This document shows, in pieces, positions 4,226-61,316 of a DNA stretch of 64,000 nt (the stretch's first letter is position 1; each line of letters begins with the position of its first letter). The stretch is from an uncultured Spirochaetota bacterium (lineage in GTDB: Bacteria; Spirochaetota; Brevinematia; Brevinematales; JAOACQ01). The translations under genes and the position numbers were made by a program. The DNA is taken from contig CAWIGG010000003.1 in NCBI GenBank assembly GCA_963835575.1, positions 64,001-128,000 of the forward strand, given 5' to 3'. The notes under the pieces were generated by a model that was given only the letters and a program-made list of their open reading frames with translations, made no database searches and was not told where the DNA came from.

Positions 4226-4384
4226 ATCCGATGCTTCACACGGATAACGCAGATTTTACGGATTAACACGGATATTTCAGGAAAGGTTTAACGAGGATAG
4301 GAAACGGAAACCGTGAAGCAAAACATTTATAAAAAAATCCGTGAGAATCCGTGTCATCCGCGTAATCCGTGTGATGAATCGGAT
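4226..4384. repeat. Tandem-inverted-repeat element (CACGGAT type)
   Basis: Left arm 4226-4273 atccgatgcttcacacggataacgcagattttacggattaacacggat. Right arm 4337-4384 reverse-complements to atccgattcatcacacggattacgcggatgacacggattctcacggat. Confidence 0.9.
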
Positions 4385-4433
4385 ATTATAAAAAAGACTG
4401 TAGAATTAAAAACTTTTCGATGAGGAGGAGTGT

Positions 4434-5315
4434 ATGGAAAAAATTCAGCTGGGCGTCATCGGCGGAACCGGGGTTTATGAGCTCAAAAATATCAAGGTCC
4501 TGGAAGAAAGGACAATGGAAACCCCTTTCGGTAAGCCTTCGGATAAAATAACAATAGCCCTTGTCGGACAGAGAAAAGCCGCTTTTATCCCCCGCCATGG
4601 CAAAGGCCACCGGTTTATGCCGACGGAAGTGCCGGTCAAAGCCAATATCTATGCCCTTAAATCGCTGGGAGTTGAGAAAGTGATATCCATCAGCGCCGTG
4701 GGAAGCCTGAAAGAGGAAATCCGCCCGACCGATATCGTCCTGCCTGCACAAATCATCGATAAAACCAAATCAAGGGACCTGACGTATTTCGGGAACGGCG
4801 TTGTCGGCCATATTTCATTTGCCGATCCCTACTGCAATAATTTCCGTTCTGAAATAAAAATAATTATTGAAAAATTCTTGAAGGAAAAAAAGCTCGATAA
4901 AAAGCTCTTCACGGAGGAAACCTATGTCTGCATGGAAGGGCCGCAGTTTTCCACCCGCGCGGAATCCAACCTTCACAGGAGCTGGGGCGCCGGCGTCATC
5001 GGCATGACAGCCCTGCCGGAGGCCAAACTCGCCCGCGAGGCGGAAATGTGCTACGCGATGATCGCCCTCTCTACGGACTACGACTGCTGGAGGGAAAACG
5101 AGGAAGCGGTGGGCATTTCCATGGTCCTGGAATATATGAAAGAGAATAACAAGACGGTCAATGACCTTCTGCCGCTGATACTGGAGAATGTCCCCCTGGG
5201 CGATGAGTGCTCATGCCGGACGGCCGCGCAGTATGCGATCATGACCCCGAAGGAAATAATACCGGAGGAGACAAAGAAGAGGCTTGACCTTTTTTACGGG
5301 AAATACTGGAAATAG
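4434..5315 (+). CDS. mtnP: S-methyl-5'-thioadenosine phosphorylase
   Basis: GVIGGTG, PRHG, SAVGSL, EGPQFSTRAES, GMT..PEAKLARE and TDYDCW motifs; RBS GAGGAG. Confidence 0.93.
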   Translation: MEKIQLGVIGGTGVYELKNIKVLEERTMETPFGKPSDKITIALVGQRKAAFIPRHGKGHRFMPTEVPVKANIYALKSLGVEKVISISAVGSLKEEIRPTDIVLPAQIIDKTKSRDLTYFGNGVVGHISFADPYCNNFRSEIKIIIEKFLKEKKLDKKLFTEETYVCMEGPQFSTRAESNLHRSWGAGVIGMTALPEAKLAREAEMCYAMIALSTDYDCWRENEEAVGISMVLEYMKENNKTVNDLLPLILENVPLGDECSCRTAAQYAIMTPKEIIPEETKKRLDLFYGKYWK

Positions 5316-5392
5316 TAATATATTGAATATGGTAAAAGAGATAAAGAATAATTTGCAAACATATGTTTCGATTGGTTGGCTGCGAGAAAATC

Positions 5393-5555
5393 ACCACGAA
5401 GGCCACGAAGTACACGAAGTTTTTTACTAATAATAATTAATTTTTATAAATACGATTAGAAAAATTAATTATTAAAAACATTTAAAAAGGAGTGTTAACT
5501 CAAAATTTAAAAATATTTCAATTTATTTCTTCGTGTTCTTCGTGCACTTCGTGGT
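5393..5555. repeat. Tandem-inverted-repeat element (CACGAAG 9-mer type)
   Basis: Left accacgaaggccacgaagtacacgaag (5393-5419); right cttcgtgttcttcgtgcacttcgtggt (5529-5555); AT-rich spacer. Confidence 0.9.
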
Positions 5556-8757: not shown

Positions 8758-8758
<1 letters not shown>

Positions 8759-8830
8759 TCAGCTATCAGCTATCAGCTATTAGCTATTGGCTAACGGCTA
8801 ACGGCTAACGGCTAACGGCTAACGGCTGAT
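8758..8830. repeat. Heptamer tandem array with two inverted halves
   Basis: (ATCAGCT)x3, ATTAGCT, ATTGGCT, (AACGGCT)x5, GAT; outer ends gatataatcagc and gctgatatatc are nearly complementary. Confidence 0.9.
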
Positions 8831-13193: not shown

Positions 13194-13194
13194 A

Positions 13195-16210: not shown

Positions 16211-16277
16211 TTTTTATCGGTGTCAGACTTTTATAAATTAATGACGAATGACCGCAATCTGAGCGGTTTTATATATA

Positions 16278-16314
16278 GGGCAGTTCCAAAAACCTGTGAT
16301 TTTTGGAACTGCCC
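16278..16314. mobile_element. IS5-like miniature inverted-repeat element (MITE)
   Basis: GGGCAGTTCCAAAAA-cctgtga-TTTTTGGAACTGCCC, 15-bp perfect IR; resembles the IS ends at 39770 and 41053. Confidence 0.7.
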
Positions 16315-16569
16315 AAAACAGAGCGCCCCCGAAATGCCATGCAATGGAAAAATGGACTCAAAGCATTGCCAGGGTGCCGGGCGTAGAATTAAAAAACACA
16401 TGAAAACTTCAATTAACAAGGGGGAAAACCGCCCAGTTATGAATTATAACATAAAATGCGGTTAATATTTATTTTTTTAAATATTTATTTTATAATATTG
16501 GGCTTTAATTATTTTTTATTCTTTAATTATGATATACTATAGTATCATTTAACTCAAACCGAGTCATTT

Positions 16570-16607
16570 ATTTTGTAGAGACGCACGGCCGTGCGTCTCT
16601 ACAAAAT
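16570..16607. repeat. Perfect 38-bp palindrome, GTAG-type REP
   Basis: attttGTAGagacgcacgg|ccgtgcgtctCTACaaaat. Confidence 0.9.
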
Positions 16608-16713
16608 GGCGAGGGAAAACCTAAATCCTATTGATAAATAAGAAAAACCGCTCAGTTTAGATTTTATTAATGCAATTTTATCTTTTTTATAGAATTTCTA
16701 GATAATAACATAC

Positions 16714-16751
16714 AGGCAGTTCCACAAACAATGGTTTTTGGAACGGGGCCT
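16714..16751. mobile_element. Degenerate IS5-like MITE
   Basis: aggcagttccacaaac...gtttttggaacggggcct. Confidence 0.55.
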
Positions 16752-16840
16752 ATAATATAAAATAAAAAAAATAAAGAAGAAAAGACCGAATGAAAATCTT
16801 ATTCCCCGGGAATTAAGAATTTCAAAAGGAGTCATGATTT

Positions 16841-20541: not shown

Positions 20542-20549
20542 ATTCAATT

Positions 20550-45291: not shown

Positions 45292-48200
45292 TTGAAAATG
45301 CATTTAAACCGCCGGCGGAAGGCGCTTTTCAAGGAACACACCGGGCCGGACCGTCTTACCGGGGAAAATTCCCTGGAATATCCTTTACTCGCCGACCTGT
45401 TCAGTATTGAACAGCTGGAAAAACATGGGGAGGCCATTGCCCGGCTGCATGAACTGGATTTCCGGGCAGGTAAGGATAAACTCCTGGGCAGGCTTACTGA
45501 AAATGAAAAAATCCTGAGTGAAATATATGAATTTTTAAGTACCGGAGAAGAGGCAAAACAGAGCCTGTCCACGGCCGGGGTCTGGCTCCTGGATAATTTC
45601 TTCCTGATTGAGGAACAAATCCAGATAGCGCGGAAACACCTGCCGAAAAGATACAGTCAGGAACTTCCCCGTCTCCGTTCCGGCCCATCGGCGGGCCTGC
45701 CGCGTGTTTATGATATTGTCCGCGAACTGATCTCTCATGTGGACGGTAAAGTTGATAAAGGGAATCTCGGCAGCATTACCGCTTCATATCAAAGGATAAC
45801 ACCCTTGAAATTGGGCGAATTATGGGCCATCCCCATTATGCTGCGCCTGGCCCTGATCGAAAATTTACGCCGGGTCGCTATGCGCGTCGCCGCGGGTATG
45901 AGCGACCGTAATCTGGCCGGTATCTGGGCGGACCGGCTGCTCAAAACAGCCGGGAATGACCCGAAAAATATTATCCTCGACATGGCGGATATGGTCAGGG
46001 CCGAACTCCCCATGACCAGCACTTTTGTGGCGGAATTAGTCAGGAGGCTGCAGAGCCGGAACCCGGCCCTTGTCCTGCCCCTTACCTGGATCGAACAGCG
46101 TCTTATAGAAAAAGGCCAGACGATCGAACGGCTGGTACAGCTGGACAGCCAGCATCAAGCGACCAGCCAGATCTCCATCTCGAACAGCATCAACAGTCTC
46201 AGGTTCCTGACAGCGATCAACTGGAAAAATTTTGTGGAAGCCATGAGCCGTGTGGAACAGGTTCTCCGCGGCGATCCCGCGGGTGTTTATCAAAAAATGG
46301 ATTTTACTACCCGGGATAATTACAGGCATGTTATCGAGAAGATCGCGAAGCAAAGCCGGCTGCCTGAGGACAGCGTAGCGCTTCAGGCGGTTAAACTCTC
46401 GTCGCAAAACAAGGAAAAAACAGATAAAACGGCCCACATCGGCTATTACCTGATCGGCCGGGGACGCAACCTGCTGGAACAGGCCGTTAAGATGCGGCTT
46501 ACTTTCAGGGATAAGCTGTCCGGAACCGGCAGGAAAGCGCCGTTATTCTTTTATCTGGGCTCCATCCTACTTGTTACGGCCGGCCTGACATTATCATCGC
46601 TCCGGATAATGCATCCCCCAGGTCCGGGGATAAAGCCCTGGCTGGCTTTCCTTCTTCTCCTCGGATTCAGCCAGCTGTCTATCGCGCTTGTAAACTGGGT
46701 GTCAAGCATTCTGGTTAAACCCGTGCTTCTGCCCAGAATGGATTTTTCCAAGGGAGTCCCGCAGGAATCATGCACGCTGATTACCGTACCATCCATACTT
46801 TCCAGCGCGTTTGATATCGGCGAGCTCATGAATAAAATTGAAACATGCTGCCTGGCCAACAGGGCCGATAATCTTTACTTCAGCCTTTTAACCGATTTCA
46901 AGGACGCGCCGGAAGAATCCATGCCTGATGACGGACCGCTTTTCAAGCTGGCCAGGGAAGGCATTAAACAGCTGAATAATAAATACGGCCGTAACGGCCG
47001 CGGGCCGTTCTATCTTTTTCATCGTTCCAGGCTGTGGAACCCGGGGGAAAAAGTCTGGATGGGATATGAGCGGAAACGGGGGAAACTTGAAGCCCTTAAT
47101 AAAGCCCTGCGGTCCGGTAAAACACCGGAGCTCCTCATCGAAGGCGACCCCTCGGTTTTGCCTCAGGTTAAATATGTCATAACTCTCGATACGGATACCC
47201 AGCTGCCCCGCGATGCGGCAAGACTGCTGATTGAAACCATGGCGCACCCGCTCAACGTTCCCGTCTATGATCCTGCTAAAAAGAGGGTCGTGTCGGGATA
47301 TACGATACTCCAGCCCAGGGTTGTCTCAAGCCTGCCGGCGGCGCGCAAGTCCTGGTATTCGAGAATCTTTGGAAGCGAAACAGGGATTGACCCTTATACG
47401 CGGGCGGTATCGGACGTTTACCAGGATATTTTCGGAGAAGGCTCATTCATCGGCAAGGGAATTTATGACGTGGATATGTTCATCCGGTCCCTGGCTGATC
47501 GTCTGCCTGAGAACCGGATTTTGAGCCATGATCTCCTGGAGAGCACATACGGCAGGTCGGGCATGATCAGCGACGTCCAGCTGATCGACGAGTTCCCGGA
47601 AAGCTACAGCGAGGATATTTCCAGGCGCCGCCGCTGGATCAGGGGCGATTGGCAGATCGCCGCATGGTTACTGCCCCGCGTGCCCGGGTATAAACAGAAA
47701 CCGGAGAAAAATCCCATCTCTTTATTATCGTGGTGGAAGATCTTTGATAATCTCCGGAGGAGCCTTGTCCCGGCAGGATTAATGCTTTTGATCGTTCTCA
47801 GCTGGATGTTCCTGCAGCCTTCATGGCTGGGGTTTAGTATTGCTGCGGGGATTATTTTTATTCCCATGCTGCCCGGTGTTTTTAAGCAGGCGTTCCGTAT
47901 TCCCGTTAAGTTCCCATTAACCCTGCATATGCTCTCGGTGGCCGGATACCTGGGACGCCATCTTTTCCAGGCTGTCTTTTTGTTCGCGGTCCTTCCTTAT
48001 GAGGCTTTTTTTAATCTTATCGCAATCATTATAACCTGCTCCAGGATGCTCTTTTCCAGGCGTAAACTTCTCGAATGGACCCCGTCCGGGGAAGCCAGGC
48101 ATAAACCATGCAGAAACTTGCCGGGCTATTACCGGCTGATGGCTATTGTTCCCCTGCTCATACTTGTCTTCGGAACATTTCTATTCACACAATGGCAGGA

Positions 48201-51200
48201 ATGGATATTAAATATATTGGGACTGACGCTATTCTGGTTTTTTTCTCCCTTTTTCGCGTGGTGGATCAGCAGGCCGCTGGTTAAGCGCAGTATCAGCCTG
48301 TCCCCAAAGCAGATTACATTCCTGAGGAAAATCTGCCGTAAAACCTGGAGATTTTTTGAAACCTTTGCGGGGCCTGAAGACAACTGGCTCCCGGCGGATA
48401 ATTACCAGGAAGAACCGAAAGAAGCATCTGCGCACCGGACCTCGCCCACGAATATCGGGCTGATGCTCCTTTCGAACCTGGGCGCTTATGATCTCGGATA
48501 CCAGTCCGCGGGGCAATTGATCGACAGGACCAGAAAATCATTCAGGACAATGGAAGGACTGGCCCGGTTCCATGGGCATTTCTTTAACTGGTATGATACC
48601 AGGACCCTGCAGCCCCTGCCGCCGGAGTATGTTTCAACAGTGGACAGCGGCAACCTGGCAGGCTATCTTTTGACCCTCAGACCCGGCCTTCTTGAGCTCA
48701 AGGACCGTAAAATCTTCCAACAGCAATTATATAGCGGCCTGATCGATGCGCTCTCTGTTATCAATGATCTGCTTATTCCTCCGCCGGATAAAATAACCAT
48801 GATACTGAAAAAAAAGTCCGCATTGGATAAACGGCTGAGTCAGCTTATAGAAACCATAACGGATATGCGGCTTCAGACCGGAGGACTCGGCAAGGCTCTG
48901 GAAGATTTAAACAGAATTGTCATTGAGGTCCGGGAACTGCGAATCCTGGCGGGTGAAAAGCCGGACCCGGAAGCGGATTGGTGGTTCCAGGCGCTGGAAG
49001 ATCAATGCGCCGCGGAACAGGAAGAACTGATCTTTCTGGCGCCCTGGCTTGTTTCTGAAGGACCGGGGAACACGATAAACAAAAAAATAATACAGGACCT
49101 GGATAATAACCGCACACTCTCTCAACTTGCCGGTTTGAATGAATTATCGGCTTCTATTGAAGCCGGGATAAAAAAATCAGGCCCGTCTTCAGAGGAAAAG
49201 CGGGAACCGGACCTGGAATTTTATGACAAACTTCTTTACAAGGTCAGACAGGGAAGCCATCGGGCCCAGGCGCGTATCAAACAGCTGGAACAGATGGCCC
49301 TGCAATGCCGGGACCTCTCAGACCAGGATTATGATTTCCTGTACGATGCTTCCCGCAATCTCCTCAGCATCGGATATGATGTGTCCAAACACCGGAATGA
49401 CGAAAGTTTCTATGATCTGCTCGCTTCCGAAGCCCGGTTATGCAGTTTTATCGGGATCGCCCGGGGCAAACTGCCCCTGGAACACTGGTTTTCCCTGGGC
49501 CGTCTGGTTACTATCTGGAAAGGCAGAACAATCCTGCTCTCCTGGGGCGGCTCCATGTTCGAATACCTTATGCCGCGGCTGGTGATGCCGGACTATGACA
49601 ATACCCTGCTCGGCCAATCCTGTCAAGCGGTCGTGGAAAGACAGATCGCTTACGGGCGGAAAAAAGGTGTGCCATGGGGTATTTCAGAATCTGCCGAAGC
49701 CATGACAGACGCCGGCCTGAATTATCAATACAGGTCTTTCGGAGTACCGGACATCGGATTTAAACGGGGACTATCCAATGACCTGGTGATCGCGCCCTAT
49801 GCTTCCGTCCTGGCGATGATGCTTAACCCCGGCGAGGCATGTGTGAATTTACAGAAACTTTCAGAGCGCGGTTTCGAAGGAAGATATGGATTTTATGAGG
49901 CAATCGATTTTACGCCCGGCCGTCTGCCTCATGATCAATCCGAAGTCCTGATCCGTTCGTTCATGGCCCATCATCAGGGTATGAGCTTCATTTCCTTAGT
50001 TAATTATTTTACAAATGATCTGATGATAAACCGGTTTACATCCGATCCCCTCTTTCAGACAACGGTCCTTCTCCTTCAGGAACGGGTACCTAAAGCCACC
50101 CCGTTTCAAATGCTGCCTTCGGTCCTTTCAAGGACAAGGGACATGCCGGAGAAGCAGGAAGATGCCCTGCGGGTGTTTAACACGGCCGGGACGCCTTTCC
50201 CGGAAGTTCACCTGCTCTCCAACGGCCGGTATCATGTGATGGTGACCAATGCCGGGGGAGGGTACAGCCGGTGGCGGGATATTGCCGTCACCCGCTGGAG
50301 CGAAGACGCTACCAGGGACAATTTCGGAACATTTATCTACATCAATGATATTTCCAGCGGCAGCCTCTGGTCAGCCGCTTTCCAGCCGACGCTCGCCGAG
50401 CCCAAGAATTATGAGGCGCTGTTTCCCCAGGCGCGGGCTGAGTTCCGGCGCAGGGACCAGGGCCTTGATACCTATACGGAGATTGCCGTATCACCCGAAG
50501 ACGATATCGAGCACAGGCGGATCAGCCTGAGCAATTATACAGTCAAGACACGGACCATCGAGATTACCAGTTATGCCGAAGTGGTCCTGATCAAACCTGA
50601 CGATGAAACAGCTCATCCCGCGTTCTCCAATCTGTTCATGCAAACCGGGATCATCCGGGAACACAAGGCAATTTTATGCTCCCGGCGGCCGCGATCTCCG
50701 CATGAAAAAAACCCATGGATGTTCCATCTCCTCGCTGTAAATGAAAATGAACAATTTGAAGTCTCCTATGAAACCGACCGCTTGAAGTTCATCGGCCGCG
50801 GCCGGGCCGCCTGCAACCCGCTTGCAATGGAAGAGGCAGGGCCTCTTTCCGGAACAGAGGGACCGGTTTTGGACCCAGCTGTCTCCATCCGCTGCAGGCT
50901 GACCCTGAAACCCGGCGATACGGTCACTGTCGGGTTTATTTCGGGTATGGCGGAGACACAGCAGGAAGCCATGACTTTGATTGAAAAATATCAGGACAGG
51001 CGTCTGGCGGACAGGGTTTTTGACATGGCGCTGATCCATGGAAAGGTCCTGCTTCAGCAGCTTAATGCCTCGGAATCCGACGCTCAAGTTTACGGCCGCC
51101 TGGCCAGCTCCATACTGTATTCGAACCTCAACCGCAGGGCCAATCCGGCCATCCTGATGAAAAACAAAAAGGGACAGTCCGGCTTATGGGCTTACAGCAT

Positions 51201-54024
51201 ATCCGGGGACCTGCCCATTGTCCTCCTGCGGATCAGCGATAAGACGAAGATCGAACTGGCGGCAAAAATGATACAGGCCCACACTTACTGGCATTCGAAA
51301 GGTCTGCAGGTCGACCTGGTCATATGGAATGAAGACTGGTCGGGCTACAGACAGGCGCTCAATGACCTGATCACCGGCCTGATCTCTGCCGGACCCGAAG
51401 CATCCGCCTATGACAGACCGGGCGGCATCTTCCTCCGCCATCCGGACCAGATGCCGGAAGAAGACCGGATCCTGATGCAGTCAGCCGCGCGCCTGATCAT
51501 CACAGACAGCGGCGGAACTCTGGCGGAACAAAGCCAGCGCTCTGCCTATAGCGGGATCAATATCCCGAAACTGGCCGCGTCCCGCGATAAGCGGCCTTTT
51601 ACAGGAATTGAAAACTTCAGGCAGGACAACCTGCTCTTCTTCAACGGCATCGGCGGCTTTACCCGGGATGGAAGAGAATATATAATCCAGATCAAACCCG
51701 GGGAAACGCCGCCCATGCCCTGGGTCAATATACTCTCAAATAAGAATTTCGGGTCCGTGATTTTACAAAGCGGAGGATATACATGGTATGAAAATTCCCA
51801 TAATTTCAGGCTGACCCCATGGTATAACGACCCCGTAAGCGAATCGAGCGGCGAAGCCCTGTATATCAGGGATGAAGCATCCGGCTCCTTCTGGTCGCCG
51901 ATGCCGCTGCCTGCCCCGGGTTCAAGCGATTATCTCAACCGTCATGGCTTTGGATACAGTGTTTTTGAATATTCACTCTACGATCTTAAGTCGGAACTGT
52001 GGATTTACGTGGATATAAACGCCCCGGTAAAGTTCTGGATGCTGAAAGTGCGTAATGATTCCAACGGTATACGCCGTCTGTCATCAACCATATTCCTGGA
52101 ATTGGTACTGGGAGAAATCCGGTCCAGGAACCAGATGCATATCAGGACGGAGATTGACCCCATGACCGGCGCTGTCTTCGCGGCCAATCCCTATAGTGTT
52201 GAATTCTCAGGACGCGTGATGTTTCTGGGGACCAATGAAGTCAATCGAAGCATTACAGGGGACAGGACGGAATTTATCGGCCGCAACGGCTCACTCGCCG
52301 ATCCTCAAGCCATGCATAAAGTCCGCCTCTCAGGCAGGACCGGCGGAGGCCTTGACCCCGCGGCCGCCATACAGGTATACTTTGAATTGGAACCGGGGCA
52401 GGAAAAAGAAATTGTTTTTATCCTCGGCGTCGGCAGGGATATTGAAGACGCTCAGAATCTCGTACAAAGATACAACGGCTCGCTTCCCGCGTACCAGGCC
52501 AGGGAGAGGGTCTGGGAATACTGGAAACATACCCTCGGCACAATCAATATCGAAACTCCGGACACGGCATTGAATTTGATAACCAACGGCTGGCTGATGT
52601 ACCAGATCATGGCTTCGCGTCTCTGGGCCCGCAGCGGGTTCTATCAGTCCGGAGGCGCTTTCGGGTTCCGTGATCAGCTTCAGGATGTCATGGCCCTGGT
52701 CCATGCGGAGCCGGGACTCTTCCGCGAGCACCTCCTGCTCTGCGCTTCCAGACAGTTCCGCGAGGGGGACGTACAGCACTGGTGGCATCCGCCCCAGGGC
52801 CGCGGCGTACGCACCCGGATATCCGATGATTTTCTCTGGATGCCGTTTGCCGCCGGCGCATATATTACACGGACCGGGGATACGGGGATCCTGGATGAGA
52901 TAGTTCCTTTCCTGGAGGGCCGTCCCCTTAATGCCGGGGAAGAATCGTACTATGATATGCCTCTCAGGTCAGAGGAAAACGCCCCGTTTTATGAACACTG
53001 CAAAAGAGCGGTCATGCATGCTTTCCGGTTCGGACAGCACGGATTGCCATTAATGGGCGGCGGCGATTGGAACGACGGAATGAACCTTGTCGGGGCGGAA
53101 GGCAGGGGCGAAAGCGTCTGGCTGGCTTTCTTCCTTTATCATATCCTGGAGGAATTCGGCCCGCTGGCCCGGCTGCATGGCGATGAACCCTTTGCAAAAC
53201 AATGCGCTGAAGAAGCGGGAAAGTTAATGAATAATATTGAGTCTCATGCCTGGGACGGGAAATGGTACCGCAGGGCGTATTTTGATGACGGCGCTCCGCT
53301 GGGTTCGCTGCAAAACCAGGAATGCCGGATCGACGCTGTCGCTCAAAGCTGGTCTGTGCTTTCCGGGGCATCTTCCCCCAAAAGAGCGCGGCAGGCCATG
53401 CAGTCCCTGGAGCACAGGCTGGTCCGTCCCAAAAGCGGCCTGATCCTCCTTCTGGACCCTCCGTTTGACAAATCAAACCAGGAACCGGGATATATCAAAG
53501 GATACGTTCCCGGCATCAGGGAGAACGGCGGACAGTACACGCACGCGGCGGTATGGGCCGTCATGGCTTTCGCAAAAATGGGAGAAAACGAAAAAGTAAA
53601 AAAATTACTCGCAATGATCAATCCGGTCAACCATGGTTCAACCCGTGAAAAAATTGAAATCTACAAAGTCGAACCGTATGTCATGTCAGCTGATATTTAT
53701 GGAACGGAACCCCATACCGGACGGGGAGGCTGGACATGGTATACCGGGTCCGCTTCCTGGATGTACCGTTTAATCATAGAATCTGTTTTCGGGTTGGATT
53801 TGAAGGTCAACAAACTTTATTTTAAACCATGCATTCCCGAAGACTGGGAATATTTCAAGGTCCATTACCGCTTCAGGGAAACGGTATATCACATGGACTT
53901 TCATCAAATAAAACCCGGAGGGGATATCCATGTCGCTGTGGACGGAGCGGAACAGCCGGATCCATCAATAACGCTTACTGACGACCGCCTGGAGCATTTC
54001 GCGGAAATTTTGATCGGCGGTTAA
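45292..54024 (+). CDS. Cyclic beta-1,2-glucan synthase-like protein (Cgs/NdvB: GT84 + glucoamylase-like/GH144 + GH94)
   Basis: WLLDNF, LPRVY, ERKRGKL, ITLDTDT, SHDLLE, RRWIRGDWQ, RTSPTNIG, SWGGSMFEYLMP, QSGGAFGFRDQLQD, GDWNDGMN, RENGGQYTH and GRGGWTWYTGS motifs. Confidence 0.93.
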   Translation: MKMHLNRRRKALFKEHTGPDRLTGENSLEYPLLADLFSIEQLEKHGEAIARLHELDFRAGKDKLLGRLTENEKILSEIYEFLSTGEEAKQSLSTAGVWLLDNFFLIEEQIQIARKHLPKRYSQELPRLRSGPSAGLPRVYDIVRELISHVDGKVDKGNLGSITASYQRITPLKLGELWAIPIMLRLALIENLRRVAMRVAAGMSDRNLAGIWADRLLKTAGNDPKNIILDMADMVRAELPMTSTFVAELVRRLQSRNPALVLPLTWIEQRLIEKGQTIERLVQLDSQHQATSQISISNSINSLRFLTAINWKNFVEAMSRVEQVLRGDPAGVYQKMDFTTRDNYRHVIEKIAKQSRLPEDSVALQAVKLSSQNKEKTDKTAHIGYYLIGRGRNLLEQAVKMRLTFRDKLSGTGRKAPLFFYLGSILLVTAGLTLSSLRIMHPPGPGIKPWLAFLLLLGFSQLSIALVNWVSSILVKPVLLPRMDFSKGVPQESCTLITVPSILSSAFDIGELMNKIETCCLANRADNLYFSLLTDFKDAPEESMPDDGPLFKLAREGIKQLNNKYGRNGRGPFYLFHRSRLWNPGEKVWMGYERKRGKLEALNKALRSGKTPELLIEGDPSVLPQVKYVITLDTDTQLPRDAARLLIETMAHPLNVPVYDPAKKRVVSGYTILQPRVVSSLPAARKSWYSRIFGSETGIDPYTRAVSDVYQDIFGEGSFIGKGIYDVDMFIRSLADRLPENRILSHDLLESTYGRSGMISDVQLIDEFPESYSEDISRRRRWIRGDWQIAAWLLPRVPGYKQKPEKNPISLLSWWKIFDNLRRSLVPAGLMLLIVLSWMFLQPSWLGFSIAAGIIFIPMLPGVFKQAFRIPVKFPLTLHMLSVAGYLGRHLFQAVFLFAVLPYEAFFNLIAIIITCSRMLFSRRKLLEWTPSGEARHKPCRNLPGYYRLMAIVPLLILVFGTFLFTQWQEWILNILGLTLFWFFSPFFAWWISRPLVKRSISLSPKQITFLRKICRKTWRFFETFAGPEDNWLPADNYQEEPKEASAHRTSPTNIGLMLLSNLGAYDLGYQSAGQLIDRTRKSFRTMEGLARFHGHFFNWYDTRTLQPLPPEYVSTVDSGNLAGYLLTLRPGLLELKDRKIFQQQLYSGLIDALSVINDLLIPPPDKITMILKKKSALDKRLSQLIETITDMRLQTGGLGKALEDLNRIVIEVRELRILAGEKPDPEADWWFQALEDQCAAEQEELIFLAPWLVSEGPGNTINKKIIQDLDNNRTLSQLAGLNELSASIEAGIKKSGPSSEEKREPDLEFYDKLLYKVRQGSHRAQARIKQLEQMALQCRDLSDQDYDFLYDASRNLLSIGYDVSKHRNDESFYDLLASEARLCSFIGIARGKLPLEHWFSLGRLVTIWKGRTILLSWGGSMFEYLMPRLVMPDYDNTLLGQSCQAVVERQIAYGRKKGVPWGISESAEAMTDAGLNYQYRSFGVPDIGFKRGLSNDLVIAPYASVLAMMLNPGEACVNLQKLSERGFEGRYGFYEAIDFTPGRLPHDQSEVLIRSFMAHHQGMSFISLVNYFTNDLMINRFTSDPLFQTTVLLLQERVPKATPFQMLPSVLSRTRDMPEKQEDALRVFNTAGTPFPEVHLLSNGRYHVMVTNAGGGYSRWRDIAVTRWSEDATRDNFGTFIYINDISSGSLWSAAFQPTLAEPKNYEALFPQARAEFRRRDQGLDTYTEIAVSPEDDIEHRRISLSNYTVKTRTIEITSYAEVVLIKPDDETAHPAFSNLFMQTGIIREHKAILCSRRPRSPHEKNPWMFHLLAVNENEQFEVSYETDRLKFIGRGRAACNPLAMEEAGPLSGTEGPVLDPAVSIRCRLTLKPGDTVTVGFISGMAETQQEAMTLIEKYQDRRLADRVFDMALIHGKVLLQQLNASESDAQVYGRLASSILYSNLNRRANPAILMKNKKGQSGLWAYSISGDLPIVLLRISDKTKIELAAKMIQAHTYWHSKGLQVDLVIWNEDWSGYRQALNDLITGLISAGPEASAYDRPGGIFLRHPDQMPEEDRILMQSAARLIITDSGGTLAEQSQRSAYSGINIPKLAASRDKRPFTGIENFRQDNLLFFNGIGGFTRDGREYIIQIKPGETPPMPWVNILSNKNFGSVILQSGGYTWYENSHNFRLTPWYNDPVSESSGEALYIRDEASGSFWSPMPLPAPGSSDYLNRHGFGYSVFEYSLYDLKSELWIYVDINAPVKFWMLKVRNDSNGIRRLSSTIFLELVLGEIRSRNQMHIRTEIDPMTGAVFAANPYSVEFSGRVMFLGTNEVNRSITGDRTEFIGRNGSLADPQAMHKVRLSGRTGGGLDPAAAIQVYFELEPGQEKEIVFILGVGRDIEDAQNLVQRYNGSLPAYQARERVWEYWKHTLGTINIETPDTALNLITNGWLMYQIMASRLWARSGFYQSGGAFGFRDQLQDVMALVHAEPGLFREHLLLCASRQFREGDVQHWWHPPQGRGVRTRISDDFLWMPFAAGAYITRTGDTGILDEIVPFLEGRPLNAGEESYYDMPLRSEENAPFYEHCKRAVMHAFRFGQHGLPLMGGGDWNDGMNLVGAEGRGESVWLAFFLYHILEEFGPLARLHGDEPFAKQCAEEAGKLMNNIESHAWDGKWYRRAYFDDGAPLGSLQNQECRIDAVAQSWSVLSGASSPKRARQAMQSLEHRLVRPKSGLILLLDPPFDKSNQEPGYIKGYVPGIRENGGQYTHAAVWAVMAFAKMGENEKVKKLLAMINPVNHGSTREKIEIYKVEPYVMSADIYGTEPHTGRGGWTWYTGSASWMYRLIIESVFGLDLKVNKLYFKPCIPEDWEYFKVHYRFRETVYHMDFHQIKPGGDIHVAVDGAEQPDPSITLTDDRLEHFAEILIGG

Positions 54025-54052
54025 TATTAATTCCGCTCCCTAAATTTTTATC

Positions 54053-54315
54053 GACCCCAATTCAGCAGGATTAACAGGATTGATCAGGATAGATTCGGCA
54101 AGCTCACTACAAGTTTGCAGGATTGGAATTAGCCACAGAATTTCACAGAAAAACACTGCTTTTATGCTATTTGTTTTAAAGGTTTATATTTTTTTAGTGT
54201 TTTAATTCTGTGAACTTCTGTGTTTTTCTGTGGCAGACCTCGCGTTTTTCCTAAAATTCCATAAAAATATCATGAAAATCCTTCAAAATCATGAAAATCC
54301 TGTTCTATTGGGGTC
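54053..54315. repeat. Nested tandem-inverted-repeat elements (CAGGAT type outside, CACAGAA type 54132-54234 inside, REP in the left arm)
   Basis: gaccccaat..caggattaacaggattgatcaggat / atcatgaaaatcc...aatcctgttctattggggtc; inner gccacagaatttcacagaa / ttctgtgaacttctgtgtttttctgtggc. Confidence 0.9.
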
Positions 54316-54431
54316 TATTTAAAAAAGTTAAGTTAATAAAGATTTTAAATTAAATATATATTAAAATTGTATTTAAATTTCAATTGTTCTCCAAAATCGA
54401 ATTTCAAATCACGTTATCAATCAGAAATTAG

Positions 54432-55577
<1,146 letters not shown>

Positions 55578-55588
55578 TCTTTATACCG

Positions 55589-55779
55589 GCCCCAATTTGG
55601 CAGGATCAACAGGATCAAACAGGTCCCCGACTTGATCGGGGACAGGATTTGCGGAATAAAGGATTGAGCCACAGAACTTCACAGATTAGCACTGAATATT
55701 TCATGAAAAAGCAAAGGCTTTGTAAAGGTTAACATTTTTTAATGATTTATTTCCGTGTAATTCTGTGCAATTCCGTGGC
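55589..55779. repeat. Second copy of the CAGGAT-arm plus CACAGAA element composite
   Basis: gccccaatttggcaggatcaacaggatcaaacagg[tccccgacttgatcgggg]acaggatt, then gccacagaac... (55668) / ttccgtgtaattctgtgcaattccgtggc (55751-55779). Confidence 0.88.
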
Positions 55780-55880
55780 CAATTAATTTCTGGCTTGTTT
55801 CAGAAATTTATGATATTATTTTCCTGAAAACACTTTTATGGCTCATACTGCGCATTATGAATAATTAACCGGTGGTAAAA

Positions 55881-57584
55881 ATGAAAAAAATAGCCGAAAA
55901 ATACTCTATATTGCTTATTCCTTTCTTTTCAATCCTTGCCGGCTTCACAATTTTTTTCCGGGACGGCTGGCCGGATAATCACGATGGAAATGCCATTTTT
56001 ACGAGGGGCAAAATCTTTTTTGATCTTATAGTAAATCATCATAACCTGTTCCCGATGTGGACCGTTTATGGGAATCATGGACTGGGCTCGCCTATGCCTT
56101 TTTTTTATCACCGTTTATACTATTACCTGATAAGTTTCATCAATCTGGGGTTTGATGACATCCTGCTGTCCGTTAAATTATCCATTCCATTATTGCTTTT
56201 GGCTGGAGGAACAGCTGTTTACCTGCTGATCAAGAAAATATTCGACAATAAACTGTACGGCATCATCGGAAGCGGCCTGTATATTTTTTCAAATTACCTC
56301 TATACAGACTGGCTGGTGCGCGGGGCCGCGGCCGAATTCACGGCGCTGATCATCATTCCCTGGATTCTCCTGGGCTTCCTGCAGATCGCCGGCGGCTTTA
56401 AGAAGCGCTATTTTCTTCTGCTGGGTTTTTATTTCTCATTATTGATGTACGCGCATTCCCTTATCTTTATTTTCTCTTTTTTTCTATGGATTTTCTTCTT
56501 TATCGCGTACCGGAAGGAATGGAAAAAGTTTTTCCCCGGCCTCCTGTTGTTCCTGCTGCCGGTCATTTTGATCGATCTTCCATTCATCATCCCCTATTAC
56601 CGCCTGATTGACCGGTTCAATTTAAAAATCGCGGCAACCATTTTTCAGGTAAAAAACAGTTTTGTTCAATTTTCGCGGTATCTGTTTGACGATTGGTACA
56701 TTATCGGCGCGAACCGGGAAAATTTTTCTGTCGAAATAAGCCGGTTTTATTTTATACCATTGTTTTTATTTTCCCTGTTCTGCATCATAAAATCAAAAAA
56801 AGCTTTTCCGGTTCAACTCAAAGATATTTATAAAGATCATTATATCCGGTTCACAGCTTTTGCCCTTTTATTTTATCTGGTCCTTCAAATGAATTTTTCA
56901 CTGCCCTTTTACCAATTGATCCCCTTTTTAAATTATATCCAGTTCCCATGGAGGCTTCTCAGCATTATAACGCCTTTGTCCGTGATCCTGTTTTTTTATT
57001 ATATTCCGTCGGCTGCCGGATTAATGATAAAAAATAATCGGAATTTTATCACTCTCATTGTTATGCTGTTCATACTGCTTCTTCAGATTTTCTGGGTTGG
57101 AGGAAATTCTCAATTTTACAGATATTTAACAATCCCGGGGAAGGAACTTCGTGAAAAGATGATGGATGAAAACCTGGATGAAAACAGCACTTGGGCCGAA
57201 TACCAGCCGGTCCCTTTTCATAAAAAAGATGTCAAATCCCTGATAGAAAATCATGGCTGTAAAATTTTATATATCAATACCCCGGAACTTTTAACCGGAT
57301 CAAGGGAATTTGACAAAATCATTATCAGATTGAACAAAAATCAAACAGGAACAATTGTGCTTAATCAATTAAAAAGTCCATTTCTCACGTTAAAATGCCC
57401 GCCGAATATTGATATACGCGAAGGCCCCTGCAGGGAAATTATTTTCTCCGTCAGCAGCATCAGCGATGAAAGCACTATTGAAATCGGCAAAACCAGTTTA
57501 ATAGATCTTTGTCTGAATAAAGGGCAGTTCCAAAATCTATGTTGGAAATATCTGATTGATTTTGAGTTTTTGGAACTGCCCTAA
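55881..57584 (+). CDS. Polytopic membrane protein, GT-C-like (6-pyruvoyl-tetrahydropterin synthase-related/YfhO-like)
   Basis: HD, FP.W, G.G.P..FFY, RGA.AE and IQFPWRLL motifs; many TM segments. Confidence 0.75.
   Translation: MKKIAEKYSILLIPFFSILAGFTIFFRDGWPDNHDGNAIFTRGKIFFDLIVNHHNLFPMWTVYGNHGLGSPMPFFYHRLYYYLISFINLGFDDILLSVKLSIPLLLLAGGTAVYLLIKKIFDNKLYGIIGSGLYIFSNYLYTDWLVRGAAAEFTALIIIPWILLGFLQIAGGFKKRYFLLLGFYFSLLMYAHSLIFIFSFFLWIFFFIAYRKEWKKFFPGLLLFLLPVILIDLPFIIPYYRLIDRFNLKIAATIFQVKNSFVQFSRYLFDDWYIIGANRENFSVEISRFYFIPLFLFSLFCIIKSKKAFPVQLKDIYKDHYIRFTAFALLFYLVLQMNFSLPFYQLIPFLNYIQFPWRLLSIITPLSVILFFYYIPSAAGLMIKNNRNFITLIVMLFILLLQIFWVGGNSQFYRYLTIPGKELREKMMDENLDENSTWAEYQPVPFHKKDVKSLIENHGCKILYINTPELLTGSREFDKIIIRLNKNQTGTIVLNQLKSPFLTLKCPPNIDIREGPCREIIFSVSSISDESTIEIGKTSLIDLCLNKGQFQNLCWKYLIDFEFLELP
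57522..57581. mobile_element. IS5-like MITE inserted in the 3' end of a CDS
   Basis: GGGCAGTTCCAAAA...TTTTGGAACTGCCC flanked by TAAA on both sides. Confidence 0.8.
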
Positions 57585-57689
57585 ATATTAAAAAGAGCGG
57601 CGGGCCGTCCTCATTTAAGCGGTTTATTTTTTTAATATATGCCCATTTAATCTCTCCTTGTTTTTTTCAGTTTATGGTATTATAATTAA

Positions 57690-57729
57690 GGGTAATTCTA
57701 AAAACCTATATAAGTTTTTGGAACTACCC
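57690..57729. mobile_element. Degenerate IS5-like MITE
   Basis: gggtaattctaaaaac-ctatataa-gtttttggaactaccc. Confidence 0.6.
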
Positions 57730-57763
57730 GGTTATAAATAACTTTTTGGATAATGTGAAAGAC

Positions 57764-57899
57764 GCTGCCGCAAGGAGTTAAACGCACTTTTACTCAATTC
57801 AGCAATACTTGCGGAGGCGCGCTGAATTTTTTTCCGCGCGCAGACGCTTAGTATTGCTTTGAGTAAAAGTGCGTAAAGCATAGCGAACTCAGCGGCAGC
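57764..57899. repeat. Long multi-stem hairpin (136 nt)
   Basis: gctgccgc/gcggcagc; gagtt/aactc; acgcacttttactcaa/ttgagtaaaagtgcgt; agcaatact/agtattgct; gcgcg/cgcgc. Confidence 0.88.
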
Positions 57900-58060
57900 A
57901 TGATCTAAAACAAAGTCGATAATTCTAAAAACCATAATATCAGTACGGTTTGGTACCGAAAACTCAAGTTTAACTCGCCGCTTTCAGCTTTCAGTTCCAT
58001 AAAACCGATATAAAAACAAGTTTTTAGAAACGCTAAAATATCAATAATTCGGGGACAAGC

Positions 58061-60934
58061 ATGAGAATCCGTTTGATAATTCTTTTCATATTATTTCAAT
58101 CTGCCATCATGTATTCCATGAATTCAGACGCCCAGAGGTATTTCAATTCGGGAAAGGCCTCATTCAACGACGGGGCTTACTCAATGGCGATCACCCTTTT
58201 TCAGAAAGCGGTGATGAGCGACCCTGAAGGCGAGCTCGCCGACGACGCTTCCTATTATATAGGGCTCTGTTATTATCAGGAAGGCGAATATGAACAGGCC
58301 ATCCAGACCTTCCTGAAATTTTTAAATGATTACACCGATTCGCTTTTTAAGGAAAAATCGACATTCATCATAGGCAATTCTTATTTTAAACTCAAAAGCT
58401 ATGAAAAGGCCGTGCAGAAACTCAGGCTTTTTATTAAATCCTATCCGGACTCCAGGCTCAATCCGAACGCGCATTACCTGATCGCCTACAGCCTTCTTTT
58501 AACCGGCAAGTTTGATGAGGCTGTCGATGAATACAGCCTGATCGTGAAATCCTATCCTTCTTCGGATTACACGGAGGAAAGCCTGATGCGTCTGGGCGAG
58601 GCTTATTTTTATGATAAGGACATCAATAAGGCAGTCAGCACATTAAAGAATTTCCCGCAGAAATACCCTTCTTCCCCATTCAGGGACGAAGCCGATTTCT
58701 TTCTGGCAAGAAGCCTTTATCAGAATAATGATATGGAAAACGCCGCCGTTATTTTTGCCAGGCTTTCAGCCGCGACAAATTTCAGCTTCAGGCCTGATGC
58801 CCTGTATTATGCTTCCATGATCTTTATCAAACAGGATAATTTTAATGAATCGGTAAAGTACCTGTCCGCGCTCGCCCAGATCGAAAATAGCGATTATCAT
58901 GACGAGGCGCTCTATAAGCTGGGCCTGCTCTATAAATTACAGGAAGATTATCCTTCAGCCATTAAATATTTCCTCCAGCTTACATCCGGCAATAAAAACC
59001 CGGAATACATTCAAAAAGGATACCTGGAGCTGGCATCCTGTTATATCATCCAGGAAAATTACGCGGATGCCATTAAGGTTTATGAAAAAATAGCCGCACT
59101 GGGAGGGGAAAATACCGCCCTGTCGCTTTCAAAAATGGCGGAACTGAAATTTACAAAAAAGGAATATGACGGGGCCATTGACGATTTCACAAAGCTTCAG
59201 AAACAATTCCCCGACACGGAATACGGTAAAACAGCGCTGTACTGGACCGGAAGGTGTTACCTTGAAGAAAGCAGGTATAAAGATGCCATAACTTTCTTTG
59301 AAAATTATATCCAAAGCGAGCCGCTTTCAGAGAAAAGCGATGAGATCAATCTTTTCATCGGTAATGCTTATGCCGGGATGGGAGATTATGACACGGCGCT
59401 GACCGCTTATGAAAAAGTCCTGAAAAAGCCCGATTCGCCCCAGGCAGACGAAACTCTTAACGCCGAAGCCTGGGTTTATGTAAAAAAGGATGAATACAGC
59501 CGCGCGGCCGATTTATATAAAAAGTTGATCAATACTTATCCCAAAAGCCCTCTGGTCCCTCTCGCCTATTACAGCCTGGGCATTATTAAGTATAATCTCA
59601 AGGATTACGGCCCGGCCATGGAGTATTTTAAAAAAGTGACCGCTGATTATAAAAATTCCTCCTACACAGGAGATGCTTCATTAAAGATCGGCTGGATTTA
59701 TTATAAGCAGGAAAATTTTGAGAATCTGGCAGACTATCTTTCGGCTATAGAAATTAATTCTTTTACGGCCGAACAGAAAGCGGAAGTTTTCAATCTGCTG
59801 GGATGGGCAAAATTCCGGCTGAAATTTTACAACGAGGCGGCCGGCTGCTTCAAAAATTCAATGGACCTGACGCATGATAAAACTAAAATCCTGGAAAATC
59901 AGCTTTATATCGCCAAATCCTATTATAATATGGAAGATTACACCAATTCAATCCAGAGCTATAGAAAATACATCGAAAAAGCGAACGCGTTCGGCATGAA
60001 GGATGATATACCCGCGGCCCTTTCCGATATGGCCTGGTGCTATATTAAAACCGGAGACAATCAAAATGCGGCTGATATCTTTCAGAATTTAATAAAAGCC
60101 TATCCGAAAAGCCCCTATACATCGGAAGCGTTGTTCAAACTCGCGGAATATTACTATAACCAGTCCGATTTTAAAAAAGCGATAGAAAACTATGAAAAAA
60201 TCATCTCTTTATCCAGAGAAGGGGATTTTTCCTCCTCATCCCTCTATTGGATGGCATGGTCTTATTATAATCTGAGCGATAAAATCAACGCGGTAAAAAT
60301 TTTCGAACAATATATTACTCAGTTCCCGAAAGGCGATTATGCTTCGGACTCACTGCTGCGGGCCGCCAATATATACTACGACCTCAATAATTATGACAAG
60401 GCGAAAATTTACTACCAGAAACTCCTGTCCCAGTTCCCGGATTCGCCGGACGCCGAAAAAGCCGGGATCCAGCTTTCGGAAATCAAGCTGAAGGTTGAAA
60501 GCGGCGGCAATGAGGAAAAACTTTACCAGATGCTCATCGAAAAGAGCAAAACACCGCAGGCCAAGGCATCGGCAATGTACAAACTGGCCATGGTCTATAA
60601 AAGGAACGGCAAAACCGGCGACGCGAACAAACTCTTCAATGATATTATCAAGATATCGACGGATGATGAAGCCGCGCTCGCCACATATGAGCTGGCCGAG
60701 GATAATTCCGATAAAGGCAGCTATGAAGAGGCCATCAAGCAGTATGGAAGCATTTTTTATGTCTATAAATACGCCGATATATACCCTCAAAGCCTCTATG
60801 GAATTTCCTACTGCTATTATAAGACCGGAAATAACGATGCCGCAAATCAATATCTGAAGAAGATTATTGAAAAATATCCGGCCACTCCCTGGGCTGATAA
60901 AGCGAAAGATTTACTGAAAGAAATGAGTAAATAA
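58061..60934 (+). CDS. Exported long TPR-repeat protein (CpoB/BamD-like repeats)
   Basis: Signal peptide; more than 20 TPR-like units with recurring YP.S...A.Y..G pattern. Confidence 0.88.
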   Translation: MRIRLIILFILFQSAIMYSMNSDAQRYFNSGKASFNDGAYSMAITLFQKAVMSDPEGELADDASYYIGLCYYQEGEYEQAIQTFLKFLNDYTDSLFKEKSTFIIGNSYFKLKSYEKAVQKLRLFIKSYPDSRLNPNAHYLIAYSLLLTGKFDEAVDEYSLIVKSYPSSDYTEESLMRLGEAYFYDKDINKAVSTLKNFPQKYPSSPFRDEADFFLARSLYQNNDMENAAVIFARLSAATNFSFRPDALYYASMIFIKQDNFNESVKYLSALAQIENSDYHDEALYKLGLLYKLQEDYPSAIKYFLQLTSGNKNPEYIQKGYLELASCYIIQENYADAIKVYEKIAALGGENTALSLSKMAELKFTKKEYDGAIDDFTKLQKQFPDTEYGKTALYWTGRCYLEESRYKDAITFFENYIQSEPLSEKSDEINLFIGNAYAGMGDYDTALTAYEKVLKKPDSPQADETLNAEAWVYVKKDEYSRAADLYKKLINTYPKSPLVPLAYYSLGIIKYNLKDYGPAMEYFKKVTADYKNSSYTGDASLKIGWIYYKQENFENLADYLSAIEINSFTAEQKAEVFNLLGWAKFRLKFYNEAAGCFKNSMDLTHDKTKILENQLYIAKSYYNMEDYTNSIQSYRKYIEKANAFGMKDDIPAALSDMAWCYIKTGDNQNAADIFQNLIKAYPKSPYTSEALFKLAEYYYNQSDFKKAIENYEKIISLSREGDFSSSSLYWMAWSYYNLSDKINAVKIFEQYITQFPKGDYASDSLLRAANIYYDLNNYDKAKIYYQKLLSQFPDSPDAEKAGIQLSEIKLKVESGGNEEKLYQMLIEKSKTPQAKASAMYKLAMVYKRNGKTGDANKLFNDIIKISTDDEAALATYELAEDNSDKGSYEEAIKQYGSIFYVYKYADIYPQSLYGISYCYYKTGNNDAANQYLKKIIEKYPATPWADKAKDLLKEMSK

Positions 60935-61030
60935 AGATATACCGGCGTTTTATGCAAATACTACCAACTGTAACCCTATTTTCCGGACTTTTTTTTAAAG
61001 AGTCATTCTAATATCAATCTTATGAGTTGT

Positions 61031-61316
61031 AACCACAGACGCCGTGGTGAGCTTGTCGAACCATTACACTGATTTCACAGATATTTCATATAAAATCCAT
61101 ATGGAATTATAGCAGAAATAAAATATTTCTGTTTTTTAATACTAAAAAAAACTAATTGGAAATGGCTTGCCGCGCCAATAATTTAATATGTTAGCGGATC
61201 GTTCTTCGTTTCTATTTCCATATTCATAATTATAATATGATTTCACTGGCTTGCAGAGCGCCTCCCGTTTCTATTCTTTGAAATATTAATCTGTGTATTC
61301 TGTGAAATCTGTGGTT
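61031..61316. repeat. Tandem-inverted-repeat element (CACAGAT type) with a REP in the left arm and a gene relic inside
   Basis: aaccacaga[cgccgtggtgagcttgtcgaacca]ttacactgatttcacagat / atctgtgtattctgtgaaatctgtggtt (61289-61316). Confidence 0.9.
61168..61227 (-). pseudogene. N-terminal relic of a GxxExxY (PD-(D/E)XK-type) protein gene
   Basis: Minus strand reads MNMEIETKNDPLTY*IIGAA, matching the typical GxxExxY start D.LTY.IIGAA..VH. Confidence 0.6.

Follow-up and report, generated by a model that had tools for sequence, protein, structure and literature searches.

What are the short inverted-repeat elements that recur through a 64,000-nucleotide stretch of the genome of an uncultured Spirochaetota bacterium, and what put them there? 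The stretch, called the window below (G000:C3:64001–128000), belongs to the source assembly G000 (4.39 Mb, 94% complete; C-numbers denote its contigs) and was compared with four congeners syntenic with it (G001–G004) and with further genomes of the phylum, which bear other G-numbers. Elements whose arms are arrays of a 7-nucleotide (nt) word are best read as non-autonomous, relic and cargo-bearing forms of a mobile cassette. The system to which they would belong is best read as one that resembles REPINs (doublets of repetitive extragenic palindromes, REPs, that form hairpins) and RAYTs (REP-associated tyrosine transposases), and that would be run by a Cas4/RecB-type nuclease, the GxxExxY protein, reading the word arrays.

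Word-arm elements in the genome

A preliminary description had claimed that tandem units followed by the same units inverted occur at 13 positions of the window, and this design was seen at all of them. At 12 of the 13 the arms are word arms, in which a 7-nt word (consensus CRCNRAN) is repeated about three times at a spacing of 8–10 bp; the element at 8758 differs, with a period of 7. A de novo scan for doublets combined with alignment (score at least 16) found hundreds of pairs genome-wide and 0 in locally shuffled C3, C5 and C6, and a genomic census, for which a word pattern was derived from CRCNRAN, counted 871 arms and 149 inward-facing pairs, whereas reversed and shuffled sequence each gave 0. 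The census caught 8 window pairs, the remainder being degenerate, interrupted, long or of another word type and judged by eye; a scan for exact 5-mer triplets was dropped, since degenerate arms escape so strict a search. The word-arm elements are confirmed as genuine and not due to chance. They do not form the single family that had been supposed, as about ten word types and at least two protein–arm systems were distinguished.

The elements have a characteristic position. Of 110 short elements in the genome, 2 fall within an open reading frame (ORF) of at least 100 aa, 69 occupy gaps between co-directional genes (background 58%), 28 convergent gaps (16%), and 11 divergent ones (26%); their median distance past the upstream stop codon is 49 nt, and the mean guanine-plus-cytosine content of short spacers is 25%.

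Linkage of word arms to the GxxExxY gene

All nine matches to PF13366 (GxxExxY) in the genome, at 107–147 bits, lie between paired word arms, with differing words; six are full-length open frames and three appear disrupted (one TAG, two partial matches), and an additional relic lies at C5:37927. The earlier expectation that such arms surround GxxExxY and four-helix-bundle genes is thus borne out at nine of nine GxxExxY matches and at the sole four-helix-bundle gene (see below). A mobiliser encoded elsewhere in the genome had also been predicted: a matching GxxExxY locus exists for five window word types (CACGAAG, CACAGAA, CACAGAT, CAGGAAG, and CACCAAG) and none was found in this assembly for CGCAAAG, CACGGAT, and CAGGAT, words that accompany nucleases in other genomes.

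Beyond this genome, 221 GxxExxY loci were gathered, 208 of them distinct; in 177, each flank spans 250 nt or more. Arms that face inward and have a word in common flank 139 of the 177, against 24 of 177 for outward arms and 163 of 879 for swapped flanks; a stricter, pattern-free test found arms at 119 of 177 loci, against 43 of 529 swapped pairs and 51 of 177 in direct orientation, the last value being attributed in part to nested and tandem arms. Word type follows the protein. On a quick IQ-TREE phylogeny of 201 rows, in which 7 rows with less than 80% coverage were excluded and many forks are unresolved, the 149 labelled rows require 47 changes of word (mean 104 and minimum 96 after shuffling) and 11 changes of its last letter, against 58 when shuffled. 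Branches with CACGAAG-type words mix Spirochaetota, Nitrospinota, Planctomycetota, Pseudomonadota, and Bacteroidota; arms and gene therefore travel together. The nearest named relative comes from a Spirochaetes metagenome-assembled genome, and one query of viral contigs found no relative. In 124 of 143 nuclease loci the gene upstream runs in the same direction, and one element family is oriented with transcription 22 to 7.

Some arrangements stand apart. Two GxxExxY genes with their arms are repeated in tandem at G205:C4:248500–250700 with a period of about 530 bp, and arm modules are repeated in tandem between small ORFs on G008:C63, in a genome without a GxxExxY match. One CACAGAT subclade has, ahead of the start of its nuclease gene, an inverted word flanked by −35-like and TATAAT boxes, possibly an operator for self-repression; the other clades do not share this as a general feature. 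An internal promoter as a general cassette feature was rejected, the pattern being matched in only 4 of 143 loci; a consensus promoter scan of the relic at 61031 found none.

The GxxExxY protein

Steczkiewicz et al. (2012; PMC3424549) list the PDDEXK_3/GxxExxY family (PF13366) without a known function and note multiple transfers and mixed clades. The cassette protein is 123 aa long, and the E of GxxExxY, a D, E-x-K, and a Q are retained in 198–201 of 201 rows. The median ratio of nonsynonymous to synonymous substitution rates (dN/dS) is 0.07 over 28 disjoint pairs, which shows that the gene is under strong purifying selection. A structure model computed from 46 rows, which includes 11 in-frame residues upstream of the start, has a PD-(D/E)XK fold at a predicted local distance difference test score of 91. 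Foldseek ranks Cas4 SSO0001 (E = 1.4e-3), Cas4 Pcal_0546, and lambda exonuclease highest; with VIA-align, R.SwaI and SSO0001 reach Z 7.5, the nearest folds including restriction-like nucleases with none outstanding, and no match in the fold searches with this model reached E ≤ 0.001 or Z ≥ 8. PADLOC reports a Cas4 match (E = 5e-4), and a sequence search of the PDB returned only T7 endonuclease I at a non-significant E = 1.5. As modelled, the protein is shown to be a catalytically complete PD-(D/E)XK fold of Cas4/RecB type.

Elements of the window

The elements and the features inside them are as follows (window coordinates; strand where assigned).

4226–4384: empty element, CACGGAT words (four per arm), ATCCGAT ends
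5393–5555: empty element, CACGAAG words, period 9, between an MTAP-like gene and pgi
8758–8830: zero-spacer element, period-7 units AGCTATC/GCTAACG, of the second system
20407–20540: empty element, CGCAAAG words; left arm interrupted by a 22-nt REP-like hairpin (20419–20440)
25355–25481: empty element, CACAGAA words, period 10
28505–28757: degenerate CACGGAT element that also has a REP-like hairpin and, further in, an orphan CGCAGAG/CGCAAAG arm
32927–34092: cargo-bearing element; left arm CACGAAG/CACCAAG, right arm CACCAAA/CACAAAG-type
33098–33829, plus strand: AT-rich cargo ORF of 243 aa inside the 32927 element
37325–37413: minimal empty element, CACAGAT words, period 9
38836–39275: CAGGAAG-type element; REP-like hairpin in the left arm, with a miniature inverted-repeat transposable element (MITE) inside that hairpin
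38863–38991: MITE of about 129 bp, AGACTGTGTGAAAA-type ends, nested in the 38836 arm
54053–54315: outer CAGGAT-type element, GACCCCAAT ends, around the 54130 element
54130–54235: inner empty CACAGAA element, inside the 54053 element
55589–55652, plus strand: orphan outer CAGGAT left arm; 19-nt palindrome (55624–55642) between two CAGG copies
55667–55780: empty CACAGAA element
61031–61316, minus strand: internally deleted GxxExxY cassette, CACAGAT words
61167–61248, minus strand: relic with the cassette's inverted word, a TATAAT box, and the first ~18 codons of a GxxExxY gene

Several of these have counterparts elsewhere in G000. The 4226 element has a copy 83% identical over 173 nt. The cognate nuclease of the 5393 element lies in a cassette at C2:137400–137842, that of the 25355 element at C2:377388, and that of the 37325 element at C5:384649; arms related to those of the 38836 element flank a GxxExxY match at C5:453298. 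The 38863 MITE has copies of 96–99% identity at at least 4 other genomic sites. Other elements are irregular: the left side of the 28505 element has one clear word only, the words on the two sides of the 32927 element are related and non-identical, an orphan CACGGAT-type right arm lies in that element near 33950–34000, and the outer left arm at 55589 has no partner.

Orthologous sites and word abundance

If the elements move, orthologous sites should differ in presence or content, as had been proposed, and such polymorphism was found. Nine window junctions could be compared in the four congeners, and 35 of the 36 congener junctions are armless by eye (one of the 36 contains a 3.6-kb insert in G001 that was viewed at its ends only). 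The exception is the MTAP–pgi junction, where the empty CACGAAG element of G000 has as its counterpart in G002 a CACAGAT cassette that encloses a methyltransferase-like ORF of 274 aa; G003 and G004 are empty there, and G001 has another repeat. The junctions of the 4226, 20407, 37325, and 61031 elements are each armless in four of four congeners, the 32927 junction measures 1371 nt against 116–296 nt, armless, in the four, and synteny around 28505 is lost in the two congeners examined. The elements between 54053 and 55780 lie in a 19-kb block that is missing from the congeners' site. The sites of two full nuclease cassettes are armless in 7 of 7 printed congener junctions.

The abundance of words follows the presence of the gene. 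Of 301 genomes of the phylum, 31 contain at least 20 word triples and 93 contain none; a GxxExxY gene occurs in 24 of the former against 1 of the latter (medians 12 against 1). Two of the five congeneric genomes possess the nuclease clade that goes with CACAGAT; they contain 45 and 29 CACAGAT doublets, and the remaining three contain 0. For exact CCGCAGAT doublets the count is 11 in G004, the genome whose nuclease is flanked by such arms, and 0–3 in the other congeners; for CCGCKAAK doublets it is 157 in G000, where three genes of this type occur, and 0–8 in the others. Among the five congeners, then, the abundant word type is shown to match the resident nuclease type.

Relics, cargo, and nesting

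The earlier proposal saw the elements as stages of one cassette life cycle, and internal deletion, nesting, and cargo are all represented; deletion ancestry was scarcely found outside the CACAGAT family. The 61031 element retains both arms, the inverted word, the TATAAT box, and ~18 GxxExxY codons, and aligns with the interior of the cassette on C5 at a local score of 124 (z 43), in agreement with a multiple alignment; judged by this alignment, it is an internal-deletion relic of a GxxExxY cassette. Spacers of CACAGAT elements match the interior of the cognate cassette in 10 of 17 cases; across the three further families tested, only 2 of 58 spacers do so. A gene relic had likewise been expected between arms; it stands for 61031 and not for the 38836 spacer, for which descent from a four-helix-bundle or GxxExxY gene was unsupported by Pfam, a custom hidden Markov model, and tblastn, no family being matched. 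That spacer (39000–39260) has a 73% identical copy within the same arm type at G000:C3:187213–187442.

Long pairs in G000 enclose whole genes. Twenty ORFs from such pairs include a nucleotidyltransferase–HEPN pair, a helix-turn-helix–IrrE gene with DUF4411, a ClpP-like protease, DUF2971, four insertion sequence (IS) transposases, and several orphans. Among the CACAGAT stretches fetched from G002, 6 of 17 hold a non-GxxExxY ORF of 90–143 aa between both arms, all six oriented as the nuclease gene is. The window's cargo ORF at 33098 has no Pfam or PADLOC match, an Atlas best score of 0.76, and weak N-terminal matches only, in 3 of 300 other genomes. DUF559 and GIY-YIG were absent among the cargo ORFs scanned, with no search aimed at these families. 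No cargo gene was found at two sites, and cargo transport is therefore only what we infer.

Elements also nest. At G000:C4:995.7–997.6 kb, five arm types form a concentric stack, mirrored about a DUF2971 gene (PADLOC match PDC-S31), and the two-layer layout at 54053 recurs at 4 aligned sites; a nesting census by a stack method caught only 4 of 149, and no enrichment statistic was drawn from it. Arms attract small hairpins: a REP-like core occurs in 61 copies, of which 30 have at least two words within 30 nt, whereas the same holds for 199 of 2000 intergenic positions. Hairpins of 19–24 nt stand in window arms at 20419–20440, 55624–55642, and 61040–61063, and near 54096 and 38852. The 24-nt hairpin at 61040–61063 stands at the same word point as in the full cassette; in five copies a hairpin of this type enters CACAGAT words at one and the same point, whichever arm it occupies, a pattern suggestive of insertion directed to a site or of arm-to-arm conversion.

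Other features of the window

Multi-copy intergenic repeats occupy 16274–16754, 35420–35690, and 57515–58045, with 25–54 genomic matches each, several of them with GGCAGTTCC...GGAACTGCC motifs, and two inverted-repeat families unrelated to the word arms lie at 23333–23449 and 24106–24185, with 11–13 genomic matches each. The 19-kb block (38829–58060) separates pfk from a TPR gene, which in the four congeners are 61–183 nt apart, gene margins included. It contains a DDE transposase (39853), a GGDEF gene, leuB, and a GH94/glycosyltransferase gene of 2910 aa (cyclic glucan synthase-like); that the block is a single arm-bounded cargo was ruled out, because its right end has another repeat family. 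An oxidative-stress cluster at 26645–32874 comprises rubrerythrin, desulfoferrodoxin, a flavodiiron protein, and a flavin reductase–rubredoxin; its desulfoferrodoxin gene, a 198-aa ORF, and an ABC-F gene are not at this site in the congeners.

A parallel system with period-7 arms

The sole four-helix-bundle gene of G000 (C6:2181) sits between period-7 TTAGC/GCTAA arms, the type seen at 8758. Among 20 four-helix-bundle loci of the phylum, inverted tandem arms were found at 9 (14 of 380 swapped pairs), and 8 of the 9 have a spacing of 7 or 14. Because its period-7 arms match those of four-helix-bundle loci, the 8758 element is placed in a parallel system of similar layout, which these arms and genes would together constitute.

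Proposed mechanism

We lean, with moderate confidence, toward a mechanism in which the nuclease recognises word arrays of its own type and makes its cuts at the element ends or close to them, with host repair completing the insertion, short copies being served in trans and cargo replacing the interior. A full cassette would consist of a left arm, the GxxExxY gene, and a right arm, with fixed, non-identical ends. The nuclease would bind its word arrays as phased sites in double-stranded DNA, unite both ends, and cut at them or nearby; host repair or recombination would then insert the element without target duplication, either in AT-rich DNA just past the 3′ end of a gene or in the spacer of an existing element. 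Short copies would be mobilised in trans by the cognate nuclease, and foreign genes would become cargo through replacement of the interior.

Several points weigh against this mechanism. Binding, cutting, and movement are steps that we infer, and we know of no strand-joining chemistry for a lone 123-aa PD-(D/E)XK domain. The longest flank repeats of elements are 5.3–6.4 nt against 5.5–5.7 nt in swapped flanks, no excess that would indicate target duplication, although old duplications may have decayed; no sharp element end was found either, as conservation fades 5–8 nt outside the first word. Values of dS between paralogues within a genome are ~0.8–3, and full cassettes are therefore not recent copies of each other. 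Within the 94% complete assembly, three window word types are without a cognate nuclease, and 7 of the 31 word-rich genomes of the phylum are without a GxxExxY gene. One of these genomes, G237 (99% complete), has 192 word triples, many of CGCGAAC type, and only 10 weak PF13366 matches, 9 of them in ORFs of 516–582 aa, of which two were scanned and are AAA plus PD-(D/E)XK genes; as candidates for an alternative mobiliser these genes were rejected, an arm pair enclosing 0 of 4 loci examined. G001 has a few CCGCAGAT arms and no gene. Three of the 20 long-pair ORFs in G000 are ordinary host genes, and long pairs around host genes or IS elements may be mispaired arms. Several genomic CACGAAG elements are nested within the ends of the 38863-type MITE and may have spread by hitch-hiking. 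The tracking of protein clades by words is also expected from plain linkage and is no proof of recognition. Sampling matters as well: the word pattern was built from these same data, most GxxExxY loci derive from two query proteins, kin genomes are not independent in the co-occurrence counts, and the congeners, at ~70% DNA identity, are too distant for an empty target to be defined. Reads of one low-coverage DNA run (6% of words) over window positions 19500–39400 were short fragments with no joint across an element and could not show excision, circles, or inversion.

An extension of the mechanism is more speculative, and we hold it only tentatively. It sees a widespread route of gene capture and shuffling, in which a minimal Cas4/RecB-type nuclease, with no transposase or integrase, would recognise the word array of its clade, move any DNA between two such arrays, target spacers of elements already present, and thereby nest toxin–antitoxin, defence-like, and orphan genes and carry them across phyla; the word would serve as a specificity code under which several orthogonal systems could share one genome.

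Alternative explanations

The arms could instead act as folded single strands, either as DNA hairpins that the nuclease reads at replication forks in the manner of IS200 and REPs or as RNA stems processed like 23S rRNA intervening sequences; in the RNA version the gene would be looped out of the operon transcript, so that insertions would be tolerated. Seven window elements fold at z −3.8 to −6.0 against shuffled sequence, arms invariably face inward, and this reading also draws on the 49-nt median distance past stop codons, the scarcity of divergent gaps (11 of 108 against 26% of gaps), and the orientation biases described above (124 of 143; 22 to 7). The good folding, however, comes from the words alone. 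In 78 gene-oriented elements the linkers pair at 0.44 against 0.44 with shuffled partners, and G–U pairs show no strand bias (53 against 43); word positions 2 and 4 match above the shuffled level in these elements, an effect that pooled subfamilies could explain. Pairing across 86 genomic elements is 2079 against 2150 ± 15 shuffled, where the shuffled figure may be inflated by imperfect orientation; mismatches between the left and right consensus arms stay fixed, and no Rfam family was matched in the window. The idea of the preliminary description that the elements work as hairpin-bounded units is unsupported, because paired arms complement each other no better than shuffled partners outside the words. 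The pairing tests, the fixed differences between arms, and the failure to find target duplication or a sharp end therefore point to phased sites for protein binding at polarised ends more than to a stem kept by selection; a stem whose internal loops are conserved is possible. We judge the folded-strand explanation unlikely.

The nuclease might, alternatively, mobilise nothing: it would be a persistent selfish or host-useful gene (addiction, defence, or repair), the words would be operator or protection sites, and the arms would have spread via host recombination, MITEs, and IS elements. The strong purifying selection and old paralogues agree with this, as do the inverted word in the promoter-like spacer of one CACAGAT subclade, the CACGAAG elements within MITE ends, the word-rich genomes without the gene, and the absence of target duplication. 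It is opposed by the match between word abundance and resident nuclease type among the congeners, by full cassettes at unrelated sites that are empty in congeners, and by IS ends being missing around most elements printed, and it seems to us improbable.

An origin of the elements as chance repeats, as terminators, or as regulatory hairpins that evolved locally is suggested by their closeness to gene 3′ ends and is effectively refuted by the census and the orthologous-site comparison: control sequences yield 0 pairs, the families are multi-copy, congener junctions lack the elements, one gene family is flanked by the same words across phyla, and 61031 has no terminator-like site, so that we regard this explanation as hardly credible.

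Comparison with known systems

In REPIN/RAYT systems, extragenic inverted doublets are accompanied by a few divergent enzyme genes, each flanked by its own repeat type (Bertels and Rainey, 2011; PMC3116915). The word-arm elements share with these systems many short extragenic inverted doublets able to fold (149 pairs against 0 in controls; 2 of 110 in ORFs), a pairing of repeat type with enzyme type, and the role of the repeats as targets of IS insertion. They differ in the enzyme, which is a PF13366 member with a PD-(D/E)XK fold and not an HUH/Y1 tyrosine transposase, and in the unit, a non-palindromic 7-nt word in phased triplets and not a palindrome; moreover, the enzyme gene lies inside one arm pair, at sites that vary between genomes, and word arms often enclose whole foreign genes. 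The word-arm system works like REPIN/RAYT and is set apart from it by enzyme and repeat unit.

REPs tagged with GTAG or CGTC and TIRYT genes flanked by terminal inverted repeats have also been described, with CGTC types in Spirochaetes; no dedicated enzyme was found for the CGTC repeats (Di Nocera et al., 2013; PMC3733652). These too are short intergenic repeat families, and the 19–24-nt hairpins within arms resemble REPs by eye, whereas word arms are not single tagged palindromes and have a tightly linked nuclease family.

The word-arm system is not a classical MITE, IS, or integron cassette. Autonomous and internally deleted copies of MITEs and IS elements have common ends, and internally deleted derivatives occur here as well (61031; 10 of 17 CACAGAT spacers, 2 of 58 in the other three families). 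Word-arm elements, however, have no target duplication and no sharp conserved end, their ends being degenerate repeated words; the gene linked to arm type is GxxExxY and not a DDE, DEDD, or HUH enzyme, and four different IS transposases are merely in spacers. The arrayed word ends recall those of Tn7 and Mu. Unlike integron cassettes, as judged by the layout of genes and arms, the genes lie between inward-facing arms and not outside a downstream attC in direct-repeat arrays.

The cassette gene is a PDDEXK_3/GxxExxY member above the cut-off with intact catalytic residues; the accessible text of the published account of that family (PMC3424549) mentions no flanking repeats or cassette context. 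Genes of 23S rRNA intervening sequences and four-helix bundles (PF05635, TIGR02436) resemble the present loci as ORFs within inverted arms. The four-helix locus of G000, unlike such intervening sequences, is intergenic by the flanks seen and has period-7 arms.

A description of the link between arms and nuclease was not found in the literature searched, which mostly did not cover subscription papers. Tandem inverted repeats tied to a flanked gene for a PD-(D/E)XK nuclease of another family are said to have been reported from Prevotella, a different host group ('TIR/TarP', 'ARIES'), in analogy with REPIN/RAYT; if that report is real, the word-arm system is a further member of that kind.

Implications

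PDDEXK_3/GxxExxY, a large nuclease family with no assigned function, gains a candidate substrate in its own word arrays, and the GxxExxY nuclease becomes a candidate driver of an abundant class of repeats; a single genome supplies matched cognate and non-cognate protein–DNA pairs. Should the protein indeed mobilise DNA bracketed by arms, it would belong to none of the known transposase classes and be very small for a mobiliser, and its cassettes would provide a route of gene capture independent of integrons. The arrangement known from REPIN/RAYT would then have had a second, unrelated origin, which would bear on the persistence of repeat–enzyme pairs.

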